A stretch of DNA of 64,000 nt from Candidatus Doudnabacteria bacterium RIFCSPHIGHO2_02_FULL_42_25 (GCA_001777665.1 MFEQ01000006.1:24309-88308); one strand, 5' to 3'. Positions 9,708 to 64,000 are shown, counted from the stretch's first letter. The notes: a model not told the origin generated them from the sequence alone. Translations and numbers: made by a program.

Positions 9708-9751
9708 ACGGAGTAAAATACTCCAATACTCTATAGTATTGGAGTAAATTG

Positions 9752-11233
9752 CTAAACATATCCCGGAAAGAAATCACTTTTGATATGTCTCTTGGATACA
9801 CCCATTGATTTTAACAGCTTCTCGAATGCAACAACCATGCCTCGCGGCCCTGAGACATAAAAGGTCCGATCGGACCAAATAGGTAATTCTGCTTCTAATC
9901 GCTTACGGTCAAGTAATCCATCACGATCAGTGACGACATAGATAATTTTAATTCCAAGCTTATTTGCAGCCTCTGACAAAATATCTTTATATGCAATTTC
10001 GCTCTCTGTCTTCACTGAATAGAATAAGACAATATCTCTTTTTTCTTTTTTATCTATGAGGTACTTCACCATACTCCGAAACGGGGTAATACCTATTCCA
10101 CCTGCGATAAATACTAATTTTTTAGTTGTATCTTTGGGTAGTGTAAAATCTCCGGCCAATTGTCCAGCGAGGACGGTTTCACCTGCATTAAGTGACGTTA
10201 GGGTTTGCTTAAAAGTACTGGGTTTATCATAAAATTTAATTCCTAAATCGATATGATCCTCTGTCGGTGATGATGCAATGGTGAAATAACGCCGGTTTCC
10301 TCGCAAATCATCTTTTTTGGTTTTCAAAGTCCATTCTAAATACTGACCGGGTTGGAAATTAATTTTTCGATTTGGAGTAAATTCAAACCCAAATGTCGCT
10401 GGAGCGATTTCTTTTTTTTCTTTCAGCGTCATTTTATATCTTCCCTTGTCAGAAACTAAAAACGAGAAAATGTTTCCTAAGACTAGAGCTAACTCTGGAC
10501 TAGAATACAATGGGCCTATGATAAAATTGGTTCCAGCAATAAACCCAACTATGGCTCCATAAGTAATTCGAAGTTTTCTGTTCGGGGGTGTAGTCAGCGG
10601 TTCGGTTAACATCACAAATGCAAAGTACAGTGTCGAGGAATTGATTAAGGTGCTTTTTATTGCCGACCAAGAATTGGCACCATCGGGAAGAGAAAAAACT
10701 AAACGAATCAAATAGACTATCAAAAAAGATATAACTAAATCAAAATGCTGGAGTTTCCGAGCAATCAGCAATCCTCCGACTATGACAAACGGAACTAAAT
10801 AGATATTGCCGACCCACCAACTAGCACCTTGCTGGATAACTAATAGCGTGGCAATTACAGCAATCGCAGCTGGATTGAATATGTGCTTCCCACGAAAATT
10901 AATAATGTATTTCGCGGCTTGAGAAAAAACAGCGGCCAAAACTACGAACAGCAAATCAGCCCCTGGCGTAATAATCAGAGTCAAAATCGCTGCAGTGATA
11001 TATGCAGATTCATTATTCGTGGGTACTCGAAATATTTTCGAAAAAATCCAGTTTGTAACCAAACAAACGGCAAATAAAATTAGCGACGTTTGAATAATAT
11101 CTAAAGTATCATACGGCACCCAACCAAAAAATGAAAAAATAATCGCTAAGCTGATCAATATAAGCAAAAAGTACAGCATGGCTCTGTACATAGTAATCTT
11201 ATTCAAAAAGCTATCTATGTATGGAACGGTCAT
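9752..11233 (-). CDS. Membrane-bound oxidoreductase: polytopic N-terminal domain fused to FNR-like FAD/NAD(P)-binding domain
   Basis: C-terminal RYFTIASSP (RxYS FAD motif) and GGIGITPFRSM (NAD-binding). About 260-aa hydrophobic N-terminal half. Confidence 0.5.
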   Translation of the reverse strand: MTVPYIDSFLNKITMYRAMLYFLLILISLAIIFSFFGWVPYDTLDIIQTSLILFAVCLVTNWIFSKIFRVPTNNESAYITAAILTLIITPGADLLFVVLAAVFSQAAKYIINFRGKHIFNPAAIAVIATLLVIQQGASWWVGNIYLVPFVIVGGLLIARKLQHFDLVISFLIVYLIRLVFSLPDGANSWSAIKSTLINSSTLYFAFVMLTEPLTTPPNRKLRITYGAIVGFIAGTNFIIGPLYSSPELALVLGNIFSFLVSDKGRYKMTLKEKKEIAPATFGFEFTPNRKINFQPGQYLEWTLKTKKDDLRGNRRYFTIASSPTEDHIDLGIKFYDKPSTFKQTLTSLNAGETVLAGQLAGDFTLPKDTTKKLVFIAGGIGITPFRSMVKYLIDKKEKRDIVLFYSVKTESEIAYKDILSEAANKLGIKIIYVVTDRDGLLDRKRLEAELPIWSDRTFYVSGPRGMVVAFEKLLKSMGVSKRHIKSDFFPGYV

Positions 11234-11393: not shown

Positions 11394-11888
11394 TCAACTC
11401 TTTTGATATACAAAAACACTTCCAATCTTAGTTGATTCCCAATTCGGAAAGTGAAAAATGTTCGAGACCACACGACTGCCGGGCGGAAGCTCGGTTTTTA
11501 ATTTTTGCTCAAGCTTGCCCATAATTTTAGTAATTCCAAAAAGCATAACGACGTTGTAATCCGAAAAGTCCTGAAACCAAAAGTTTTTCCAGTGCACGAA
11601 AGCTAGATTCTGTAATCCAGCTTTTTTTATTTTATATCTCGACCACCAAACCAGTAGTGGGTTGATTTCAAATCCATGAGATTCGATTCCTAGTTTAGCT
11701 GCGGCAATTAGTATGCGCCCATCCCCAGAACCGATGTCTGCTAATCTATCTCCAGTTTTCAGCTCGGCTGCCTGGATCATTTGATCCACTGTTTCTATAT
11801 TGGTCGGTACAAATGGAGCGCCTCGAATAACCCCTAAAAAATACGTCACAACAAGGACAACTATGATTATCAAAACCTCAATAAGCAT
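11394..11888 (-). CDS. Class I SAM-dependent methyltransferase (small, N-terminal TM helix)
   Basis: DRLADIGSGDGRILIAAAKLG (motif I) ... FEINPLL. Confidence 0.5.
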   Translation of the reverse strand: MLIEVLIIIVVLVVTYFLGVIRGAPFVPTNIETVDQMIQAAELKTGDRLADIGSGDGRILIAAAKLGIESHGFEINPLLVWWSRYKIKKAGLQNLAFVHWKNFWFQDFSDYNVVMLFGITKIMGKLEQKLKTELPPGSRVVSNIFHFPNWESTKIGSVFVYQKS

Positions 11889-11909
11889 AGGGTTATTATA
11901 GCTTAACTC

Positions 11910-11938
11910 TTGACAAAATAGCCAAAAAGGAGTACAGT
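11910..11938 (+). promoter_or_regulatory. Sigma70-like promoter of GC-rich island 1 (TTGACA-17-TACAGT)
   Basis: TTGACA at 11910-11915, 17-nt spacer, TACAGT at 11933-11938. Followed by AAGGAGG at 11950-11956. Confidence 0.55.
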
Positions 11939-11965
11939 AATTTGTTCTTAAGGAGGAATAGCGCG

Positions 11966-12169
11966 ATGACCAAGAACCATCGAGACGGCGAAAAGTTCGG
12001 GGGTAATCACACTACCCTTCTAGATTTGGCCGTGACGATGGTAGACATCGCGGCCAAGTACTCTGAAGTAAAAACTATTAGTCCGGGCATGCTTCAGGTA
12101 AACCCCAACAAATCCGGCGGATCCCAGCGTGTGAAATTCGCTTGGATGAAGGGGGGGGGCTTCTTATGA
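11966..12169 (+). CDS. GC-rich island 1, ORF1 (67 aa, MTKNHRDGEKFGGNHTTLLDL...), unknown function
   Basis: ATG 8 nt after AAGGAGG. GC-rich codon usage unlike the host. Stop overlaps the next ATG (ttATGA). Confidence 0.5.
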   Translation: MTKNHRDGEKFGGNHTTLLDLAVTMVDIAAKYSEVKTISPGMLQVNPNKSGGSQRVKFAWMKGGGFL

Positions 12170-12312
12170 CCGTTCGGCAAAACCGATCGGTCCAGGAAGT
12201 TCGAGTCTACACGTCGGACACTCAGACGACCATGGTCGCGCTAGCAAGAGCCGCTCGAGACCGAGATATTCCCATCGGGTTTCTGAAGAAGGATAAGACG
12301 CAAACCTACTAG
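12166..12312 (+). CDS. GC-rich island 1, ORF2 (48 aa, MTVRQNRSVQEVRVYTSDTQTTMVALARAARDRDIPIGFLKKDKTQTY), translationally coupled
   Basis: ATGA start/stop overlap with ORF1. Not in ORF track (<60 aa). Confidence 0.45.
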   Translation: MTVRQNRSVQEVRVYTSDTQTTMVALARAARDRDIPIGFLKKDKTQTY

Positions 12313-12329
12313 GCTTGGAGGATACGCAG

Positions 12330-12791
12330 ATGGCAGTCAACGCAATGGGAGCCTCGGCGGTTGCCGAGTTGCTGGGTGACCTGACAGATCGGACGAAGTA
12401 CACTGAGGGGGTCCTGAAAGGGATGCTCGGTGTCATCCGAAACGAAGAGCTGCATCACACGACGATCATCGGCAAGATCGGAATCGTGCCGCTGTCGCTT
12501 GAGCAGCTCAACAAGCTCAAGTACGTGGACGAGGCCAACCAGAAGACGGCATTCGGTTCTGACATCGCCACGGCCATCCGGGCTGAAATGACGCGACGGA
12601 CGAGCATCAAGATCGAATTCGAGTCCCTCTTCCGGACGCTCTACGCCGGCGCAGAGTACGGACCCGAGAAAGTGATGGACGCAATCCAGCGTTACGAGGA
12701 GGCCATGCGCTCGAGCTCGACCTCGTTCGCTCCTCCCCCGCCGGTTCCAACGACGGATAGCAACGACGGCTTCGCGGCACGGACGCACTAA
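12330..12791 (+). CDS. GC-rich island 1, ORF3 (153 aa, MAVNAMGASAVAELLGDL...APPPPVPTTDSNDGFAARTH), unknown function
   Basis: GGAGGA at 12317-12322 precedes ATG 12330. ORF track offers TTG 12315. Pro-rich C-terminal tail. Confidence 0.5.
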   Translation: MAVNAMGASAVAELLGDLTDRTKYTEGVLKGMLGVIRNEELHHTTIIGKIGIVPLSLEQLNKLKYVDEANQKTAFGSDIATAIRAEMTRRTSIKIEFESLFRTLYAGAEYGPEKVMDAIQRYEEAMRSSSTSFAPPPPVPTTDSNDGFAARTH

Positions 12792-12814
12792 TCACCCGCG
12801 TCGTCAGGACGCAC

Positions 12815-12856
12815 AAACGGCGAGCCCAACACTGGGCCCGCCGTTTTTCTTTTGTT
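12815..12856 (+). terminator. Intrinsic terminator of island 1
   Basis: aaacggcgagcccaacactgggcccgccgtttttctttt. Confidence 0.65.
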
Positions 12857-12877: not shown

Positions 12878-12909
12878 TTACCTAGTTGCCCATATGGGCA
12901 ACTAGGTAA
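12878..12909. repeat. Perfect 32-bp palindrome ttACCTAGTTGCCCATATGGGCAACTAGGTaa (CATATG-core palindrome family, copy 1)
   Basis: Identical 28-bp core at 49787-49814 and 63554-63581. Variants at 43124-43157 and 62962-62989. Confidence 0.9.
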
Positions 12910-12925
12910 TCTCTTTTTTTACTTG

Positions 12926-12957
12926 CCTCTAATTTCAGCGATCGCTGAAATTAGAGG
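12926..12957. repeat. Perfect 32-bp palindrome cctctaatttcaGCGATCGCtgaaattagagg, immediately 3' of the dnaX stop
   Basis: Self-complementary. Same GCGATCGC core as the palindrome at 43164-43195 and the direct repeats at 56335/57514. Confidence 0.85.
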
Positions 12958-12959
12958 AA

Positions 12960-14444
12960 CTAGTTCTCTACTTCCCCGCCCATAATTTTGAGGGCGGACT
13001 CCACTAACTCATCTTTTTGCTCCACTTGAGCCTCACCTTTTTGTAACGTAGGTTTTACCATCAGTTTCAGTCCCGTCACTTCTTCGATTACTTGATCGAC
13101 AACGATTCGATTCTTACGCGCTTCGATCGCATCTTTATGAAATTTATATGGAAATATCACTACCAGTTCTTTTCCTTCTATAGAAATAGGCTGAGCTAGT
13201 TTTAAACTCGAGATAAGCGAGTGGTTATATTCTTTTAGTTTTTCCAGAATCTGCGGCCAGTGAGCTTGGACTTTGGCAAATAACTCCCCCTCGCCCTCTC
13301 TTACATTAAGAGGGGGTTCCTCTGCTGCTTCATCCCCCCTTAATATAAGGGGGGATTGAGGGGGGTTATTCTCCTCGGTCGCCTCTACTGCGGCTAATTC
13401 AAGTGGCAGACTCTGGATCGATGACCATTTGATTTCACCTTCAGCTTTCTGGAATATCTGAATGATCTGCATAATTCTTGGCAATTCCAAAGCTTGGGCT
13501 TGATCCTTCATCTTCTGTGAAATTTCTTCGGTATAACCAAAATCAGAAGTTGTCCCCACTTTCGTCAACAATATTTTTCGCAAATACTCTAAAAAATCTT
13601 TTTCAAATTGATATAAATCTTTGCCCCCATAAGTCAGATCTGAAATAAAACTCACCGCTTCTTGGGTTTGATTTTCTACGAGCAGATCTAGGAATTTACT
13701 CAAAGTCTTCACGCCTGTTAAACCGAGGACTGTTTCGACTAATTCTTCAGTAATCTCGCCTTCGGCGTAATTCATAACTTGATCGAGTAGTGATAGCCCA
13801 TCTCGAAAACTGCCATCCGCAGCAGTCGCGATTTCCATCAGGGCTCCTTCACTAACTTTGATCTGATTATCGGAAGCCACATATGCGAGATGCTTGCTTA
13901 AATCTGCAATGCCGACTTTTTTAAAATCAAATCGTTGCGTCCGCGAAATAATCGTGGCTGGAACTTTATGAATTTCGGTCGTGGCCAAAATAAATACGGC
14001 ATGACTCGGTGGTTCTTCCAAAGTCTTAAGTAATGCATTAAAAGCGCCTTTTGAAAGCATGTGCACTTCATCGACAATAATCACTTTATATGTGGCCTTA
14101 GTTGGGGCAAATTGCAAATGATCGATCAATTCTCGAATATTATCCACGCCAGTGTGCGACGCCGCATCTATTTCCAGCAAATCTAAACTGGTATTCTCTA
14201 GAAATGGTTTACAGATCTCGCATTCGTTGCAGGGTTCCGAGCCTGTTCTATTCTGACAATTAATAGCCCGCGCAAAAATCCGAGCTAGCGTCGTTTTCCC
14301 GACCCCTCTGGGTCCGGTGAATAAATAAGCGTGGCCCACGCGATTATTGGCGACCGCATTGGCGAGCGTGGTTTTGATGTGTTCCTGATTGACCACGGAA
14401 CCGAAATTCAGTGGCCGATATTTTCTATACAATACTAAGTTCAT
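12960..14444 (-). CDS. dnaX: DNA polymerase III subunit gamma/tau
   Basis: Walker A GPRGVGKTT, clamp-loader motifs. Contains an in-frame GC-rich insertion (about 13290-13375) encoding EENNPPQSPLILRGDEAAEEPPLNVREGEGE. Confidence 0.85.
   Translation of the reverse strand: MNLVLYRKYRPLNFGSVVNQEHIKTTLANAVANNRVGHAYLFTGPRGVGKTTLARIFARAINCQNRTGSEPCNECEICKPFLENTSLDLLEIDAASHTGVDNIRELIDHLQFAPTKATYKVIIVDEVHMLSKGAFNALLKTLEEPPSHAVFILATTEIHKVPATIISRTQRFDFKKVGIADLSKHLAYVASDNQIKVSEGALMEIATAADGSFRDGLSLLDQVMNYAEGEITEELVETVLGLTGVKTLSKFLDLLVENQTQEAVSFISDLTYGGKDLYQFEKDFLEYLRKILLTKVGTTSDFGYTEEISQKMKDQAQALELPRIMQIIQIFQKAEGEIKWSSIQSLPLELAAVEATEENNPPQSPLILRGDEAAEEPPLNVREGEGELFAKVQAHWPQILEKLKEYNHSLISSLKLAQPISIEGKELVVIFPYKFHKDAIEARKNRIVVDQVIEEVTGLKLMVKPTLQKGEAQVEQKDELVESALKIMGGEVEN
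13334..13374. repeat. Copy of the ccccttaatataagggg-ggttag-gaggggttat element embedded in-frame in dnaX
   Basis: ccccccttaatataaggggggattgaggggggttattctcc. Compare 60616-60669 and 21040-21085 (reverse orientation). Confidence 0.65.
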
Positions 14445-22589: not shown

Positions 22590-22600
22590 AATTAGTTATT

Positions 22601-22628
22601 TGCTACCATACTTGGTAGTATGGTAGCA
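22601..22628. promoter_or_regulatory. Palindromic operator-like site TGCTACCATACT-tggt-AGTATGGTAGCA upstream of the TrpR-like gene
   Basis: Perfect 12-bp inverted arms, 4-bp spacer, about 29 nt upstream of ATG 22657. Second degenerate copy at 23186-23213 upstream of cysS. Confidence 0.5.
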
Positions 22629-22656: not shown

Positions 22657-23175
22657 ATGTCAAAGTTTCCACGAGTTTTAACTAAAAAAGAACAAGAAGA
22701 ACTCTTTATAGAATTTGCGCAAGCCCTCGCGAGTTTGCATTCGGCTGTAGAAATGGCAAATTTTATCAAAGATCTATTATCGGAACCAGAAACAATGATG
22801 TTGGCACGAAGATTGCAAATAGCAAAATTGCTCTATAAAGGTTTGAATTACCGAGAGATAAAAGAAGAGTTGAAGGTCAGTTTCGGCACAATTGCTAGAG
22901 TTCAGACTTGGATGCAAATATACGGGGAGGGCTATCGGACAGTTCTTGAACGAGTCAGCCGAAAAAAATATGACCCTACAAAAGATGTCTCTGACTGGAA
23001 AAAGGTTAAGCGCCGATATCCTTTATACTTTTGGCCGGAATTACTATTAGATGAGATAATAAAATCATCGAATAAAAAACAAAAGCAAAAACTTTTGGCT
23101 GTATTGGCAAAGCAAAAAGAAAAAACCGGTTTAAGTAAAGAGTTGGAACATATTCTCAAAAGCGCTCAACTCTAA
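22657..23175 (+). CDS. TrpR-like YerC/YecD-family HTH protein
   Basis: LSEPETMMLARRLQIAKLL..GLNYREIKEELKVSFGTIARV matches TrpR/YerC HTH. Confidence 0.5.
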   Translation: MSKFPRVLTKKEQEELFIEFAQALASLHSAVEMANFIKDLLSEPETMMLARRLQIAKLLYKGLNYREIKEELKVSFGTIARVQTWMQIYGEGYRTVLERVSRKKYDPTKDVSDWKKVKRRYPLYFWPELLLDEIIKSSNKKQKQKLLAVLAKQKEKTGLSKELEHILKSAQL

Positions 23176-23185
23176 TTTAGCAATT

Positions 23186-23213
23186 TGCTACCATACTTGG
23201 TAGTATGAGAGCA
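23186..23213. promoter_or_regulatory. Second (degenerate) copy of the TGCTACCATACT palindrome, upstream of cysS
   Basis: tgctaccatacttggtagtatgagagca; two mismatches in the right arm. Confidence 0.4.
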
Positions 23214-27808: not shown

Positions 27809-27864
27809 GTCAGTTAAACCTACCCGACATTGGTAGGTGCCCATTATAACCGACGCGGCGGGAC

Positions 27865-28077
27865 CTATCCGTGAATACGTCTCAGGAGCTGGTGCCGGCT
27901 CTCTGCAGTAGCGAGTTGGTTCGAAGCGAACCGACGCGCCTGTTGAACCAACTCCTTCATCGCAGGATCCTGGCTTTCCAGGATGACCTGGGGATCGAGC
28001 TTCCTTTCACGGATGTAAGTTTCAAACTGCTGCTGCTCGAACTCTTCGAGTGGCAGGATGTGGCGGGATTCAGGCAC
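27865..28077 (-). CDS. GC-rich small ORF (70 aa, MPESRHILPLEEFEQQQFETYIRERKLDPQ...), unknown; sits where rpmA would be expected downstream of rplU
   Basis: GTG start 7 nt after AAGGAGG on the minus strand. GC-rich island about 27860-28120. Confidence 0.4.
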   Translation of the reverse strand: MPESRHILPLEEFEQQQFETYIRERKLDPQVILESQDPAMKELVQQARRFASNQLATAESRHQLLRRIHG

Positions 28078-42707: not shown

Positions 42708-42736
42708 TTGACAAATTGCCAAGAAGAATGTATTAT
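42708..42736 (+). promoter_or_regulatory. Sigma70-like promoter of GC island (TTGACA-17-TATTAT)
   Basis: TTGACA 42708-42713, TATTAT 42731-42736, GGAGG 42760-42764, ATG 42771. Confidence 0.55.
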
Positions 42737-42770
42737 ATTGTGTTCTACTGCTGAAAATTGGAGGATTTTC

Positions 42771-43031
42771 ATGAGACGAAAAGGAAAAAACCACATCTGT
42801 GAAGACCACAGTTCGTGGTTGAGTATGCGGAACACGGGGGTCTGTCACGTCGAGTTACGTGGATCCAGGGCCTACCTCAGCGTGGCCTACTACAACGGCA
42901 CGACGTGGCTGCCTAAATTGGTCAGAATCCACTTCTGCCCTTTCTGCGCTAAACCTCTGGGGAAGAGGAAGGTGCGCAAGCTCCGCAAGACAGGGACGAA
43001 GTCGCTTCACTCCCGCCCCCTCTCGAAGTAG
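42771..43031 (+). CDS. GC-rich small ORF (86 aa), putative zinc-ribbon protein (HICEDH...CPFC)
   Basis: ORF with SD. Cys/His pairs; basic C-terminal tail KRKVRKLRKTGTK. Confidence 0.45.
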   Translation: MRRKGKNHICEDHSSWLSMRNTGVCHVELRGSRAYLSVAYYNGTTWLPKLVRIHFCPFCAKPLGKRKVRKLRKTGTKSLHSRPLSK

Positions 43032-43050
43032 TATCCACTCTACTTCGCTG

Positions 43051-43092
43051 CCGAAATCGCGTTGGGCGCCAGCTCGACGCGATTTTTCTTTT
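43051..43092 (+). terminator. Intrinsic terminator of the 42771 island
   Basis: gaaatcgcg...cgcgatttttctttt. Confidence 0.6.
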
Positions 43093-43123
43093 AAGCTTCA
43101 CAATTTTAACTTGCCGCGGTCAT

Positions 43124-43157
43124 GTACCTATTTGCCCCATATGGGACAAATAGGTAC
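43124..43157. repeat. 34-bp near-perfect palindrome gtacctatttgccccATATGggacaaataggtac (variant of CATATG-core family)
   Basis: One mismatch. Same architecture: ACCTA..TTGCCC-CATATG-GGGCAA..TAGGT. Confidence 0.8.
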
Positions 43158-43163
43158 CCCTGC

Positions 43164-43195
43164 AACATAAAAGGTGCGATCGCACCTTTTATGTT
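43164..43195. repeat. Perfect 32-bp palindrome aacataaaaggtGCGATCGCaccttttatgtt
   Basis: Self-complementary. Paired with the preceding palindrome exactly as at 12878/12926. Confidence 0.85.
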
Positions 43196-56370: not shown

Positions 56371-56960
56371 ATTCTTTTTACAGCTTCAATGAACATTTTG
56401 TTAGTATCGTCAGATACAATTATGAGCCCTCGCACTATTCTTCTGTATGCAGGATCATCGGATTGGCCTCTTCCTCTCGTTATATGATCGAAGCCTCCTA
56501 CTGCAGTCACTAAAATCCAAGGATTGTGCTCTTCCACATCAGGTAATTCATGCCGGTGCTCATTGAAATCCCGACGGTATTCATCTAACCGTAACTGCAG
56601 TAATTTATCCCAATCGATCAAGAATTTCTCCTCAATCCCGAAAGATTTTAAAATTTCTTTGTATGCAGTGAGAATTCCATTTTTTACTTCTTTCAAATAC
56701 TCCCTAAAAAAATCTTCGTGAAAATTAATCAGTGTTTCAGTTTGAAAATAGACTAAACAGAGCGCCGTGACTACTAATTCATTAAAGATCCGATCTTGTT
56801 CAGTTTGGGATAACGAGTCAAAATTAATTTCGCTTCTAAAATCTATATTTCGAAATAAGTCAAAAGCTGACTTTATTGCCTTCATAGTAATGGCCACAGT
56901 ATCTTTTGCCGAATTTGGAGGACCGTAAACAAGTTTTCTGAACATAAAATAGAGTCTCAC
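56367..56960 (-). CDS. Hypothetical protein (197 aa) with possible HEPN-like Rx4H motif (RRDFNEH)
   Basis: ORF. The motif call is weak pattern-matching only. Confidence 0.3.
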   Translation of the reverse strand: MRLYFMFRKLVYGPPNSAKDTVAITMKAIKSAFDLFRNIDFRSEINFDSLSQTEQDRIFNELVVTALCLVYFQTETLINFHEDFFREYLKEVKNGILTAYKEILKSFGIEEKFLIDWDKLLQLRLDEYRRDFNEHRHELPDVEEHNPWILVTAVGGFDHITRGRGQSDDPAYRRIVRGLIIVSDDTNKMFIEAVKRI

Positions 56961-56965
56961 TACGC

Positions 56966-57514
56966 CTAATTGTGCGATCGTGTATTTTGCGTAGAATCAA
57001 ACAGCATTCTGCCTTCTAGGATATTAACATTTAATTCTACTTGTAATTCTTTTAATAGCTCTTTAAATTCTGGTAGTAGCTCCCAAGGTCCGATAAAAAC
57101 ACTCTTTTGCAACATCATAAAGCCGTTTTGAATTAAAAATCGTCTTAAAAATTGTCTGGCTTTTTTCTTTTCTTCGGGGATATCAAACATAACTAGAGTT
57201 GAAAATCCGTTATTCTTTGCCCTTCTCAACTTTCTTGAGTATATATATTTCAAACTCCTTGCCCGCCCTAAATTCGTTATCTGATAGTATGTTTTTCTTT
57301 CTTTTTTGATTTTTTTTACTAAGCCATCTCTGTCTAGTTCCCAAAAAGCTCTGGAAATTTTATAGCGATCATAATATTTAAGCCTTTTGATATATTGATA
57401 CTTGCCTTCAAAAGGATAAGGAATCAGCTCCCCCATATCGCGCAAAAACCAAAGCAATTCTCCAGTAATTGTCTTTAGACGCTTCTTGATTTTTCTTTTG
57501 GTAGTACGTTTCAT
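56966..57514 (-). CDS. wHTH + Cas2-like (VapD/Cas2 fold) protein, paralog A
   Basis: C-terminal half LVMFDIPEEKKKARQFLRRFLIQNGFMMLQKSVFIGPWE matches the Cas2 signature (V.YD.s....R..l...L...G.r.Q.SVF). Basic N-terminal domain. Paralog at 62995-63546. Confidence 0.4.
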   Translation of the reverse strand: MKRTTKRKIKKRLKTITGELLWFLRDMGELIPYPFEGKYQYIKRLKYYDRYKISRAFWELDRDGLVKKIKKERKTYYQITNLGRARSLKYIYSRKLRRAKNNGFSTLVMFDIPEEKKKARQFLRRFLIQNGFMMLQKSVFIGPWELLPEFKELLKELQVELNVNILEGRMLFDSTQNTRSHN

Positions 57515-57549
57515 ACGTATTTTACGCGATCGCGCATTTTACGTATTAT
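57514..57549 (+). repeat. 36-bp direct repeat (right copy) tacgtattttacGCGATCGCgcattttacgtattat
   Basis: See 56335-56370. Confidence 0.8.
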
Positions 57550-61451: not shown

Positions 61452-61479
61452 GGATTAATTATACCATTTCACCCCAGTA

Positions 61480-61509
61480 TTGACAAAAACACCCAAAAAA
61501 CAGTATACT
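61480..61509 (+). promoter_or_regulatory. Sigma70-like promoter (TTGACA-18-TATACT) of GC island; followed by SD + 6-codon uORF (MQPLRS, 61545-61565) and an 11-bp-stem hairpin (61580-61631)
   Basis: TTGACA 61480-61485, TATACT 61504-61509, AAGGAGG 61533-61539, inverted repeat gcagaagagtg/cactcttctgc. Confidence 0.5.
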
Positions 61510-61650
61510 TATACGTTGCACATTTCGTGCACAAGGAGGATAAGATGCAACCTTTACGTAGTTAGATTTTGAACTCACTGCAGAAGAGTGCTTATAACTT
61601 CAGATAATCCTGTCTGATCCACTCTTCTGCTAACAGCAGAGGAGAGGGTC

Positions 61651-62265
61651 ATGATCAGGAACATCGCAGACGCGTCAGAACAGTACCACAACGCCGTCAA
61701 CGCCTGCCGCGAGGTCTTCGCGGCGGCCGAGCGCGAATTCGTAGAGCCGAAGGGCGTGAAAGCCCACATCGAGGAAGCGCGGCGGCTCTACGCGGAACTG
61801 GGTGACGAGGCGTCAGCCGTGAAAGAGGTGGACAATGCAAGGCAGTGGCTGATCGGGATCGCCGGGAAGTTCTTGCGCGGTGCGGTCGAGTTCTTCGGCG
61901 ACCGCATCTACGAGCTCTCCTACATGTCGCTCGACCGCGACATCGTCGAGAACATGCAGGCTAGGTTGCGCGAGTACGAGGAAGCAGTGCGCGTCGGCGA
62001 AGCCAGCAGCTTCGAGGTACGACTCACCGCATACAAAAAACTCGCGACCGTGGTCAACGGCGCGCGCACGGAGCAGCAGCGGCGCATCGAGCACCGCGAG
62101 AAGCTGGCGCAGGAACGCGCTGAACGGGAGCAACACGAACGTCGGCGGCGTCGGGAGGAAGAAGCCGAGGCCGATCGCGTTCGAGCGAAGCAGCAACAGG
62201 AGGCTGCTGAGGCTGCGGCGCGCGAGGAACGCGCGAAGCAGTTCGACGAGCTCTTCGGAGCTTAG
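61651..62265 (+). CDS. GC-rich island ORF (204 aa) with highly charged C-terminal helix (ERAEREQHERRRRREEEAEADRVRAKQQQEAAE)
   Basis: ATG 6 nt after GAGAGGG. GC-rich. Confidence 0.5.
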   Translation: MIRNIADASEQYHNAVNACREVFAAAEREFVEPKGVKAHIEEARRLYAELGDEASAVKEVDNARQWLIGIAGKFLRGAVEFFGDRIYELSYMSLDRDIVENMQARLREYEEAVRVGEASSFEVRLTAYKKLATVVNGARTEQQRRIEHREKLAQERAEREQHERRRRREEEAEADRVRAKQQQEAAEAAAREERAKQFDELFGA

Positions 62266-62267
62266 GG

Positions 62268-62308
62268 GGTCCCTAGGGGTGTGGCACACAGGTGCCCGCC
62301 CCTTTTTC
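62268..62308 (+). terminator. Intrinsic terminator
   Basis: GC hairpin ...ggcacacaggtgcccgcccctttttc. Confidence 0.55.
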
Positions 62309-62323
62309 ATTTCCAGGTTAGGG

Positions 62324-62352
62324 TTGACAGTGGCCTCAAAATCTTATATACT
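62324..62352 (+). promoter_or_regulatory. Sigma70-like promoter (TTGACA-17-TATACT) with about 170-nt structured leader
   Basis: TTGACA 62324-62329, TATACT 62347-62352. Leader hairpins gcggcaacttcgccgc and ccgctcgcgg. AGGAGG 62514-62519. Confidence 0.5.
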
Positions 62353-62525
62353 GTTAAGCTTTAAACGGAGAAAGTTTCGTTAGCCCTGTCTGCTAAGCGA
62401 AACGGGAAAAGCAACTCAAAAAGAGCGAACGCAAGATCATATCAAACAAGTAACTCTAATTGAATGCAGCTTCGCGGCAACTTCGCCGCAAGTTTACCCG
62501 TCCGCTCGCGGACAGGAGGTCAACC

Positions 62526-62888
62526 ATGCCTGACCCACAGGACATGGACCCCACGGTCGCTCAGTTCGCTGAGGACCTGAAGTACACCCAGTGCCACGCT
62601 GAGGTTCACTACCTCAGTGTGGATGGGACGCCCCGGATGCTACGGTTCCACCCGTGGACATCCGTACTTGTCGAAGTCTCTGAGGACTGCCTAAAGGTGG
62701 TCGAGAGATTCGATAAGCGCCCCGGGGAAACCTGGAGCGAGAAGACGACGGTGATCGAGCTGAATAAGCTCTTGATCGCCAAACTCTTCGACTGCGAGGG
62801 ATGTGAACGATGCGACGACAAAGGGTCGGGCGCATTGTGGACATTCTTGCAGGGGCAACGTTCTAGGAGTACTTGGGGGTACTGTTAG
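62526..62888 (+). CDS. GC-rich island ORF (120 aa, MPDPQDMDPTVAQFAEDL...CEGCERCDD), unknown; C-terminal Cys cluster
   Basis: ATG 6 nt after AGGAGG. ORF track gives upstream ATG 62460, which lacks an SD. Confidence 0.5.
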   Translation: MPDPQDMDPTVAQFAEDLKYTQCHAEVHYLSVDGTPRMLRFHPWTSVLVEVSEDCLKVVERFDKRPGETWSEKTTVIELNKLLIAKLFDCEGCERCDDKGSGALWTFLQGQRSRSTWGYC

Positions 62889-62896
62889 AATAAACA

Positions 62897-62932
62897 CCCG
62901 GGCGACACGCAGTGTCCCCGGGTTTTTCTTTT
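62897..62932 (+). terminator. Intrinsic terminator (cccgggcgacacgcagtgtccccggg + T-run)
   Basis: Near-perfect stem with 1-nt bulge, then tttttctttt. Confidence 0.7.
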
Positions 62933-62961: not shown

Positions 62962-62989
62962 TACCTAGTTGGCCATATGGGCATTTAGG
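62962..62989. repeat. Degenerate copy of the CATATG-core palindrome (acctagttgGccatatgggcaTTtaggt)
   Basis: Three substitutions relative to the perfect copies. Lies between the GC island and the Cas2-like gene. Confidence 0.7.
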
Positions 62990-62994
62990 TAAAG

Positions 62995-63546
62995 TCAGCC
63001 AAGTTTAAATCTTTTTATTAAATCGGCTTTTATATCTATTTCTTCAGCAGTTATTAATCGTACAAAAGGCCTTATCTCATAGATCTCTTTTAAAAAATCA
63101 ACTTCATCCTCACAAGGATAAGGACATGCCCAAAGACTTTTCTGGACGAGCTCAAAACCAATCTCCCCCAACTTCCTAGTAAACTCTTTTCGGTTATTAT
63201 TAAATTCGACTGGTATATCGTACGTTACTAATCGCCATTTTCTATCCCATTTTTTCTGTGGTTTAATTTTCATATCGTCAATTTTAAATTTCAACCATTT
63301 CTCCTTCCCTTTTTTCGTTAATTTAATAACGGTTTTATCTCCTTCCTGACCTATACTGACCATCCTTGAATTTTCTAAACCCTTAAAAGATCGATCTATT
63401 TGAGTCTTGCTATATTTCTTATATAAATCATACTGACGAAAAATTTCTGCCATACCTGGTGCCACTATGACCACTGCTAAAATCCCGACCTTGGACAGGA
63501 CGTATAAAATATCTTTAGCAATTTCCGAGCGTTTAGCCATACACAA
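62995..63546 (-). CDS. wHTH + Cas2-like protein, paralog B; bracketed by CATATG-core palindromes
   Basis: WRLVTYDIPVEFNNNRKEFTRKLGEIGFELVQKSLWACP matches the same signature as 56966-57514. Confidence 0.4.
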   Translation of the reverse strand: MCMAKRSEIAKDILYVLSKVGILAVVIVAPGMAEIFRQYDLYKKYSKTQIDRSFKGLENSRMVSIGQEGDKTVIKLTKKGKEKWLKFKIDDMKIKPQKKWDRKWRLVTYDIPVEFNNNRKEFTRKLGEIGFELVQKSLWACPYPCEDEVDFLKEIYEIRPFVRLITAEEIDIKADLIKRFKLG

Positions 63547-63553
63547 ATTCTAT

Positions 63554-63581
63554 ACCTAGTTGCCCATATGGGCAACTAGGT
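63554..63581. repeat. Perfect 28-bp palindrome ACCTAGTTGCCCATATGGGCAACTAGGT (copy 3), 8 nt upstream of the Cas2-like gene start
   Basis: Identical to copies 1 and 2. Confidence 0.9.
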
Positions 63582-63627: not shown

Positions 63628-63700
63628 ACAAAAAACAGTGGATTTTTTTAATCGATCCTGCAACTACTTTGCGAAGTGTCGATTACAATCCACTGTTTTT
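63628..63700. repeat. Inverted repeat aaaaaacagtggat / atccactgtttttt with about 45-nt spacer in ORF-free terminal region
   Basis: 14-bp arms. Followed by hairpin atccgccagctggcggat (63774-63791). Confidence 0.45.
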
Positions 63701-64000
63701 TATCTCTTGAGATTTTCTAAACGTTTAATAGGCTTAACCTCAAGTAGTCTACAAAGAGTAAATATTCGCGTCAATCCGCCAGCTGGCGGATCAAAAAAAC
63801 AGTGTAACTAAAAGGGTTTTCTTTCGATGTGTGCAGAACTTGTGTGTAACACGTGAGTAATCTGTGATGAAGCAAACTCCGACGCTCCGGTCCGGAGTTG
63901 CTACCGCAACAAAAAAACCACCGTTAGGAGGTTTTTTTGATAAAGACCGGTGTGCTGCGATGAAACTTGGATTGCACTTACGAACTCCCCAAGCCTAGGA

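Follow-up and report, generated by a model that had tools for sequence, protein, structure and literature searches.

Within a 64,000-nucleotide (nt) stretch of the genome of Candidatus Doudnabacteria bacterium RIFCSPHIGHO2_02_FULL_42_25 (MFEQ01000006.1:24309-88308; hereafter the window), an uncultivated groundwater bacterium from the Rifle aquifer, we analysed a gene for a 181-amino-acid (aa) winged-helix/Cas2-like protein that lies between two copies of a 28-nt palindrome, one upstream of its start codon and one just past its stop codon. Our best reading, which we hold to be on balance the probable one, is that the gene codes for a PaaX-type autorepressor without effector domain, which would act through an operator on its own promoter and a conserved second operator at its 3' end. 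This reading draws on the position of the perfect palindrome over the predicted promoter, on the likeness of the protein to PaaX, and on the recurrence of the two-flank layout at all ten family loci that were read on both sides.

The gene, its promoter and the flanking palindromes

The features of the locus are:

62995-63540, minus strand: PaaX_M gene, 181 aa, winged helix plus Cas2-like domain; start ATG at 63540, not TTG at 63546
63547-63575, minus strand: predicted promoter TTGCCC-N17-TAGAAT (TTGCCC at 63575-63570, TAGAAT at 63552-63547; 9/12 consensus matches)
63554-63581: perfect 28-nt palindrome ACCTAGTTGCCCATATGGGCAACTAGGT, ending 13 nt upstream of the ATG; proposed primary operator
62963-62990: degenerate copy ACCTAGTTGGCCATATGGGCATTTAGGT, 25/28 identical (3 mismatches), ending 4 nt from the stop codon (62995-62997); proposed auxiliary operator

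The frame 62995-63546 is a mechanical open reading frame (ORF) that uses the first TTG as its start; since all homologues begin with MAK(R/K)SEI..., the real start is the ATG at 63540. The first-pass annotation had the gene bracketed by palindromes, and this we confirm, with the perfect copy exactly at 63554-63581. The degenerate copy likewise exists, although its coordinates had been given one base off (62962-62989 instead of 62963-62990, 4 nt from the stop), and the upstream palindrome does precede the gene, at a distance that has to be counted as 13 nt from the true ATG and not from 63546, the TTG of the mechanical frame.

The 28-mer has an 11-6-11 symmetry around CATATG. At up to three mismatches it finds four matches in the window, against 0.00 expected from 100 dinucleotide shuffles, and a chance origin of the copies is excluded. 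The degenerate copy, which sits 35 nt past the terminator of a convergent GC-rich cassette (see below), keeps the outer arms ACCTA/TAGGT and the core CCATATGG; its fold energy is -4.7 kcal/mol (z = -1.55), versus -12.7 kcal/mol (z = -7.3) for the perfect copy. Collection-wide exact scans of genome and metagenome contigs with the 20-nt core of the palindrome were uninformative, as they returned only four unrelated loci, which included the end of a contig, a piece of coding sequence and a terminator palindrome of 50 nt.

By consensus match, TTGCCC-N17-TAGAAT is the only acceptable promoter candidate upstream of the gene, and the perfect palindrome overlays its predicted -35 hexamer and nearly the whole spacer. 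With 6 nt between the end of the -10 hexamer and the ATG, the transcript is probably leaderless. An extended -10 element (TGnTATAAT) that ends 6-7 nt before the ATG also occurs at housekeeping genes lying divergent to the cassettes (61452-61486, 11886-11905, 49203-49220), which suggests that leaderless mRNAs are widespread in this genome.

Protein architecture and family

The sole Pfam match of the 181-aa protein is PaaX_M (PF20803, 'central Cas2-like domain'; E = 8.6e-19, 67.9 bits against a cut-off of 24). The NCBIfam equivalog model of PaaX (TIGR02277) scored 34.9 bits, far from its cut-off of 264.55, and aligned with residues 60-164 only, while the NCBIfam Cas2 model (TIGR01573) stayed below its threshold (18.5 against 24.5 bits). 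An AlphaFold (AF2) model built from 53 family sequences (mean predicted local distance difference test score, pLDDT, of 85) comprises helices, a recognition helix (residues 45-57), a beta-hairpin wing (61-74), a linker helix and then a beta-alpha-beta-beta-alpha-beta (ferredoxin-like) domain. When the model was compared with the PDB by Foldseek, the top full-length match was PaaX of E. coli W (8a39, E = 3.9e-5, 189 aligned columns), followed by the PaaX-like Rv0674, by Cas2 structures on the C-terminal half and by small winged-helix proteins on the N-terminal half. The label 'wHTH-Cas2-like' (winged helix-turn-helix, wHTH) under which the gene had been annotated was thus right, in terms of profile match, modelled fold and structural neighbours alike, and so was the word 'paralogous', a second member with 31% identity being encoded at 56966-57514.

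The PaaX_C effector-binding domain is absent, as the chain stops at residue 181 directly after the Cas2-like domain and Pfam gives no match there; the predicted protein is PaaX minus its C-terminal effector domain. The Cas2-like domain retains the Cas2 motifs LV.YDIP...R...L...GF..LQKS.W (including the YDI aspartate) and a near-invariant CEDE motif. Near the N-terminus (~residues 11-30, window ~63451-63510) lies a 19-residue stretch with a Kyte-Doolittle mean of at least 1.6 in 43 of the 53 family members (median 2.34); it is modelled at pLDDT <50, is lacking in the paralog, and could be either a membrane anchor or buried core.

A profile search of 1.84 billion representatives returned 1,242 clusters (50% identity) at E <=1e-30 and 4,083 at E <=1e-10, and the named matches so far all belong to Patescibacteria/candidate phyla radiation (CPR). 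Full-text literature searches found no paper tying PaaX-like proteins to Cas2 or to CPR bacteria; the family is large and, in the literature searched, undescribed. A scan of viral contigs for relatives yielded a single truncated one, which was uninformative.

Conservation of the two-flank layout

Ten family loci were read on both flanks, i.e. the window gene, its in-window paralog (paralog 2) and loci L009-L016 (35-60% identity, several of them non-syntenic). All ten genes are bracketed by a shared element, the sequence of which varies between genomes and between paralogs, and the length of which ranges from 20 to 36 nt among homologous loci. The palindrome family had been proposed to be physically tied to this protein family, and the layout supports the proposal: none of the nine further loci holds a homologue without flanking palindromes.

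L009 (P0007, 60% identity, syntenic orthologue): upstream ACCTATTTGATCCGTACGGAACTCATAGGT, 21 nt before the start; downstream, its first 20 nt repeated, overlapping the stop
L010 (P0009, 57%, different context): upstream ACCTATTTGAACAATTGTTCAAATAGGT; downstream ACATATTTGAACAATTGTTCAAATATGT, over the stop
L011 (P0033, 53%): upstream ACCCATTTGTGCCATGGCACAAATAGGT; downstream ACCTAAATGTGCCATGGCACATTTAGGT
L012 (P0039, 49%): upstream, AT-rich arms around TTGCGATCGCAA; downstream, the same element type
L013-L016 (P0022, P0040, P0045 and P0080; 53% to 35%, the last one Nomurabacteria): each with its own element on both sides
56966-57514, minus strand: paralog 2, 182 aa; PaaX_M E = 4.4e-17, Cas2 (PF09827) E = 7.8e-9; 31% identity to the gene at 62995-63540
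57515-57549: element of paralog 2, ATAATACGTAAAATGCGCGATCGCGTAAAATACGT (gene strand), abutting the ATG; its 5' end overlaps the TATAAT -10 hexamer
56367-56960: ORF of 197 aa and unknown function, behind paralog 2
56336-56370: second copy of the paralog 2 element, 34/35 identical and in the same orientation; overlaps the stop of the 197-aa ORF and lies ~8 nt past the terminator of cassette 55800-56327

Paralog 2 passes the Pfam Cas2 threshold (PF09827; 36 against 23.8 bits) and is bracketed, together with the 197-aa ORF, by two same-orientation copies of ATAATACGTAAAATGCGCGATCGC(G/A)TAAAATACGT. A distinct element for each paralog is how paralogous regulators avoid cross-talk.

As a control for the layout, we used the longest exact word common to the two flanks of a gene (150 nt upstream, 110 nt downstream), determined for the family genes and for 136 other ORFs of the same loci. 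This word was 11-25 nt long in the ten family genes, whereas the controls reached at most 10 nt in 131 cases, 11-12 nt in three, and 25 and 32 nt in the remaining two. The last two, the only strong outliers among the 136, are both genes of the Trp-repressor family (PF01371):

Window, 22657-23175: Trp-repressor-type gene with TTGCTACCATACTTGGTAGTATGGTAGCA at 22600-22628 and a 27/29 copy at 23185-23213
L011, 13524-13934 (control ORF 13443-13934): Trp-repressor-type gene with an identical 32-nt element on both sides (13401-13432 and 13937-13968)

The recurrence of the layout in an unrelated family suggests a mode of wiring regulators that these genomes use, more than the transposition mechanism of one protein family; the layout goes with small regulators and is not tied to a single enzyme family.

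The best predicted promoter candidate overlaps the upstream element at 8 of the 10 loci. At every one of the ten loci, the 3' copy begins no more than 10 nt ahead of the end of the stop codon and no more than 50 nt behind it, which ties it to the end of the gene and not to the promoter that follows; the neighbour on the downstream side is convergent at five loci and co-directional at the other five. We rejected the idea that the 3' site would always serve the next gene as promoter-operator, since this fails at loci with a convergent neighbour. Promoter elements of the next gene are included in the 3' copy, or abutted by it, in the L011 Trp-repressor case and perhaps in L012, but not at most PaaX_M loci. 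Often, as in L009, L014 and L015, a flanking copy retains the core and one of its half-sites, the other having drifted, and this loss of symmetry and of hairpin potential fits recognition of duplex DNA rather than of a hairpin.

Site and recognition helix co-vary: Q(I/V)xRS is the helix motif of all four proteins with ACCTA...TAGGT arms in their sites, QI(Q/S)SAV that of both proteins with GCATATGCTAGAA in theirs, and the remaining proteins differ in site and helix. With ten protein-site pairs, a small sample confounded with phylogeny, we regard this co-variation as supportive, not conclusive.

Solitary copies and GC-rich cassettes

Further copies of the palindrome and the cassettes beside them are:

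12880-12907: solitary perfect copy, 26 nt past the terminator of cassette 11910-12853, between the cassette and convergent dnaX
49787-49814: solitary perfect copy, 12 nt past the terminator of cassette 49228-49774, between the cassette and a convergent penicillin-binding-protein gene
43126-43155: 30-nt variant ACCTATTTGCCCCATATGGGACAAATAGGT, with symmetric changes in both halves relative to the 28-mer; 32 nt past the terminator of cassette 42708-43093
61480-62927, plus strand: GC-rich cassette array converging on the PaaX_M gene, with a 204-aa ORF (61651-62265; GC content at third codon positions, GC3, 0.80) and a 120-aa ORF (62526-62888; GC3 0.73)
11910-12853, 42708-43093, 49228-49774, 55800-56327, 61480-62927 and 27865-28077 (the last on the minus strand): GC-rich cassette units; GC3 measured for the first five

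The window thus holds seven sites of two element families, two of them on regulator promoters and five elsewhere (12880, 43126, 49787, 62963, 56336). All five non-promoter sites lie 8-35 nt past the intrinsic terminator of a short plus-strand GC-rich unit, and the chance that all five would fall in the 3' regions of the six cassettes is ~1e-5 (39 intergenic regions). The units come with their own TTGACA promoter, Shine-Dalgarno sequence and terminator (the 204-aa and the 120-aa ORF have a TTGACA promoter and a terminator each) and converge on a housekeeping gene or a regulator gene. Their ORFs reach a GC3 of 0.55-0.80, against a window median of 0.39, and every ATG-start ORF of the window with a GC3 of at least 0.52 falls inside such a unit. 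Among the family loci, a convergent GC-rich cassette adjoins the 3' site in four of ten (both window genes, L009 and L013), and a divergent one stands beside the upstream site in a fifth (L010).

The cassette proteins are nearly all orphans, Pfam and PHROGs having given only DUF2103, for one ORF; another (c1b) is an orphan with one 99%-identical match only. The 204-aa ORF (cassette c4a) has only eight relatives, all on similar CPR contigs; it adjoins holB in the four genomes examined (4/4), at 55-64% aa identity among Doudnabacteria-like contigs, and keeps a GC3 of 0.74-0.80 amid housekeeping genes at 0.36-0.66. Recent import from a known high-GC donor is not the origin of the cassettes, and both their composition and their link with the sites are unexplained. 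The possibility of a promoter at the solitary sites, driving antisense RNA into the cassettes, was dropped for want of an acceptable -10 hexamer.

Other structured elements accompany the cassettes. The minus-strand cassette 27865-28077 is without a full site; an inverted repeat ACCTACC-N7-GGTAGGT (27817-27841), with the shared arms ACCTA/TAGGT, lies between its stop and its terminator. Two palindromes (12924-12959 and 43164-43195), both long and perfect, with GCGATCGC as their core and without a T-run, are each situated 8-16 nt beyond a site of the first element family, at the end of a convergent host gene; they may belong to paralogs whose genes lie outside the window, and the second resembles the left half of the element of paralog 2. 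The palindrome GCCACCTTTGTCCGCACAAAGGTGGC, or a close relative of it, likewise without T-run and with arms resembling the ACCTAnTTG family, occurs between a GC-rich cassette and convergent rseP in L017 (2159-2184) and L018 (~1120-1145), two genomes without the module at the holB locus. A 28-nt near-perfect palindrome, TACTCCAATACTCTATAGTATTGGAGTA, is found at 9719-9746, just past the stop of a 493-aa gene (9752-11233).

Cassette leaders (61515-61560; L009 11480-11530 and 12330-12380) share the hairpin TGCACAnnTTnGTGCA just before the ribosome-binding site, and the leader of the 204-aa cassette contains a mini-ORF of 6 codons, which reads MQPLRS* in the window and MQLSRV* in L009; hairpin and mini-ORF may form a leader-based control element. 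A hairpin element of ~110 nt (GCTCGGCAC.TTTGTAAAATTACCGGC...TAATTTTACAAAGTGCCTCGC; window 55689-55796, corresponding to L001 17745-17852, and L009 12413-12532) is 86% identical in two genomes at different loci, abuts a cassette promoter in both, and looks like a miniature mobile element. In the DUF2103 cassette, a run of nine G (12151-12159), which could be a slippage-prone tract or a sequencing error, splits the ORF into overlapping frames (11966-12169 and 12166-12312), and the near-identical contig L020 breaks just past this run, inside the cassette (window 12310).

Genomic context

The window has a GC content of ~41%. The PaaX_M gene is surrounded by mreB, holB and genes for cell-wall and translation functions, and no paa catabolic genes were found among these neighbours. 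All contigs with exactly the same protein (24/24) share one gene context. Contigs L001-L004 and L020 match the window at 99.9-100% identity, so that strain-level variation could not be exploited. A foreign origin of the PaaX-like genes, as judged by base composition, was rejected, since their GC content is only 2-11 points under that of their own loci and tracks that of the genome.

In L017 and L018, holB, the 204-aa cassette, a small non-coding unit and mreB follow one another in the same order, with neither gene nor palindrome between the cassette terminator and that unit; the block of paralog 2 is missing from L009, L017 and L018. A block that comes and goes as a whole would fit an insertable module as well as an ordinary accessory gene with its own regulatory DNA. 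No integrase, transposase, HUH or Cas1 domain was detected in any ORF of at least 90 aa in the 64-kb window, no target-site duplication or direct repeats flank the block, and a second copy of the gene was not found.

Between mreB and the palindrome lie two non-coding units, each running from promoter to terminator (63630-63774 and 63908-64000, both minus strand, the latter continuing in L001 9355-9633). They are 79-80% identical to their L009 counterparts, while the adjacent coding sequence is only 64-71% identical; the shorter unit has counterparts in L017 and L018, the longer one in L018. Rfam gave no match for these conserved units, which are probably small RNAs.

Operator model and alternative explanations

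We reason that the gene encodes a cut-down PaaX-type repressor in which a winged-helix DNA-binding domain is joined to a Cas2-like dimerisation domain, and the dimer of which would bind the 28-bp palindrome. Binding at 63554-63581, over the -35 hexamer and the spacer, would occlude the promoter and so shut off the gene's own transcription, in the manner of PaaX at Px. The weaker copy, 4 nt behind the stop codon, would be an auxiliary operator belonging to the gene, which may loop with the promoter copy (~590 bp away) or may serve as a bound roadblock. At such a roadblock, transcription from the strong promoter of the convergent cassette and read-through from the gene itself would both be halted at the boundary. 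Loop and roadblock are guesses, the second of which fits the position of the cassette-capping sites between convergent terminators. We would expect the protein to be bound at the identical sites 12880 and 49787 too, and perhaps at the variant 43126. We infer binding, repression and the roles of the 3' and solitary sites from what the analysis shows, namely domain architecture, site positions, the family-wide two-flank layout and the co-variation of site and recognition helix. The first-pass annotation had offered two mechanisms, an operator used for autoregulation and recombination sites delimiting a mobile unit, and the former is the better supported, by the promoter overlap, the co-variation of site and helix, and the PaaX precedent (PMC9493321).

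Several observations weigh against this model. The promoter is only a consensus match, and the operator role is read from sequence. Three dispersed copies, the one on the promoter and those at 12880 and 49787, are 28/28 identical and perfectly symmetric, which goes beyond what operator selection usually maintains and looks like copying. A usable -10 hexamer was sought on both strands at the solitary sites and not found, and their place between the ends of convergent genes likewise sets them apart from ordinary operators. The orientation of the 3' neighbour is split across loci (half co-directional, half convergent), and the whole site-gene-site block is missing from two related genomes. Finally, the N-terminal stretch is strongly hydrophobic in 43 of 53 family members, and a membrane anchor at this position could complicate the picture of a simple soluble repressor.

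In another explanation, which we consider unlikely, the palindromes would be the terminal repeats of an insertable module (resembling an insertion sequence, or repetitive extragenic palindromes, REPs, with their REP-associated tyrosine transposases, RAYTs), the protein acting on the ends and the solitary 28-mers being dispersed copies or footprints. In its favour, the site-gene-site block is missing between the same neighbours in two genomes (and that of paralog 2 in three), the dispersed copies are exactly 28 nt long, identical, extragenic, located at 3' ends between convergent genes and devoid of flanking homology, and the protein has kept the Cas2 YDI aspartate and the CEDE motif. The element is also genome-specific and travels with the gene, and REPs are reportedly genome-specific and travel with RAYT genes. 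However, neither the protein nor the 64 kb contains an HUH, DDE, serine or tyrosine recombinase domain, target-site duplications are lacking, and the empty loci retain no solo site. The gene is found in one context in 24/24 exact-protein contigs and is syntenic in the orthologue at 60% identity, Trp-repressor-type genes have the same layout, and on these grounds the proposed mobile unit is not supported. Moreover, paralogs of one genome use different elements, the hairpin potential is lost in gene-flanking copies, and only five copies occur within 64 kb. The 28-nt length and the 11-6-11 symmetry around CATATG also recall Xer/dif-type sites, which would make the gene a dif module, but with elements of 20-36 nt at homologous loci and two unrelated ones in this genome, a single Xer system could not serve them, and the empty loci keep no site; we take this to be exceedingly improbable.

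The link between sites and cassettes invites other explanations. The palindromes could be boundary or attachment sites of an attC-like gene-cassette system, with the winged-helix/Cas2-like protein as an accessory DNA-binding factor, which would agree with the location of all five non-promoter sites behind GC3-rich cassette terminators, with the differing content behind a conserved promoter among related genomes, with sites made of conserved outer arms and a variable centre, and with the cassettes abutting five of the ten family loci (four convergent at the 3' site, one divergent). Yet no integrase is encoded in the window, the cassettes bring their own promoters and terminators and are dispersed singly, and in the arrays seen the site stands at the end only, never between cassettes. 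Cassette c4a occurs without any site in two genomes, cassette 27865-28077 is without a full one, and c4a, being inherited in synteny at ~60% identity, was not freshly captured; taken together, such a system seems distinctly unlikely. We would give a somewhat better, though still small, chance to the idea that the winged-helix/Cas2-like proteins and their private palindromes form a self-recognition system that marks the 3' boundary of accessory, persistently GC-rich cassettes and of the protein's own gene, in which case the protein would handle cassettes besides repressing itself. If this were true, the protein may insulate housekeeping genes from the cassettes or join in their capture or exchange and, should its N-terminus be a membrane anchor, might tether or select DNA bearing the mark. 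That the palindromes act as RNA hairpins, as terminators or 3' stabilisers of cassette and regulator transcripts unrelated to the protein, appears very improbable: the perfect copy does fold stably, and all copies are at 3' ends of transcription units, but neither strand shows a T-run after them, and each cassette ends, ahead of the site, in a canonical terminator of its own. Furthermore, the copy past the regulator stop has lost its hairpin, the upstream copy, which lies ahead of the predicted leaderless start, would not be part of the gene's transcript, and the occurrence of an own element on both flanks of each paralog would be left without explanation.

Comparison with known systems

According to a review of the phenylacetate pathway (PMC9493321), PaaX consists of a winged helix, a middle domain with a dimerisation motif and a C-terminal extension, binds TGATTC(N27)GAATCA, and keeps its promoter Px repressed by sterically hindering RNA polymerase. 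The protein described here has the same winged helix and Cas2-like middle domain as this repressor of phenylacetate catabolism (E. coli, Pseudomonas; PDB 8a39, 3l09), and the inverted-repeat binding and self-repression by occlusion of PaaX have their counterpart in a palindrome over the gene's own predicted promoter. It differs in lacking the phenylacetyl-CoA effector domain (181 aa, versus 279 positions in TIGR02277 and 305 residues in the 8a39 chain), in its contiguous 28-bp palindrome where PaaX recognises 6-mers 27 bp apart, and in having no paa genes nearby. The second site past the stop is a trait of this family, the members of which are so far Patescibacteria/CPR. The C-terminal domain has the fold and motifs of Cas2, and paralog 2 passes the Pfam Cas2 threshold, but the window has neither cas1 nor a CRISPR array, a DNA-binding domain is fused to the Cas2-like one, and in PaaX the latter provides the dimerisation motif.

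With REP/RAYT systems the locus shares a single-copy gene between two genome-specific palindromes that are also dispersed in extragenic 3' regions. Unlike RAYTs, the protein is not an HUH/Y1 transposase (PF01797), its Pfam and NCBIfam matches being confined to PaaX_M and Cas2-like models; the copy number is low (5 in 64 kb), hairpin potential is not kept, and every paralog has its own element. A strong promoter operator combined with a weaker one a few hundred bp downstream (here ~590 bp) resembles lac O2, gal OI and deo, although in every member of this family the second site closely follows the stop codon of the regulator gene itself, and looping would be a matter of analogy. As for the cassettes, they resemble integron cassettes in their small accessory ORFs, deviant composition and 3' cap (an imperfect palindrome with conserved outer arms, as in attC), and phage 'morons' in being self-contained promoter-gene-terminator units. 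They differ from both in that there is no integrase, no array beside an attI and no phage context, and in that at least one cassette is inherited in synteny.

Significance

What is new here would be, on our best reading, an autorepressor of the PaaX type that is without the sensor domain and has a second, conserved site at the 3' end of its gene; it stands within an unexplained association with persistently GC-rich cassettes. CPR bacteria have few recognisable regulators, and a rule by which the site of a regulator is read from both flanks of its gene would make hundreds of regulator-site pairs assignable by computation. The link between sites and cassettes, in turn, bears on how streamlined genomes hold and control their accessory genes.

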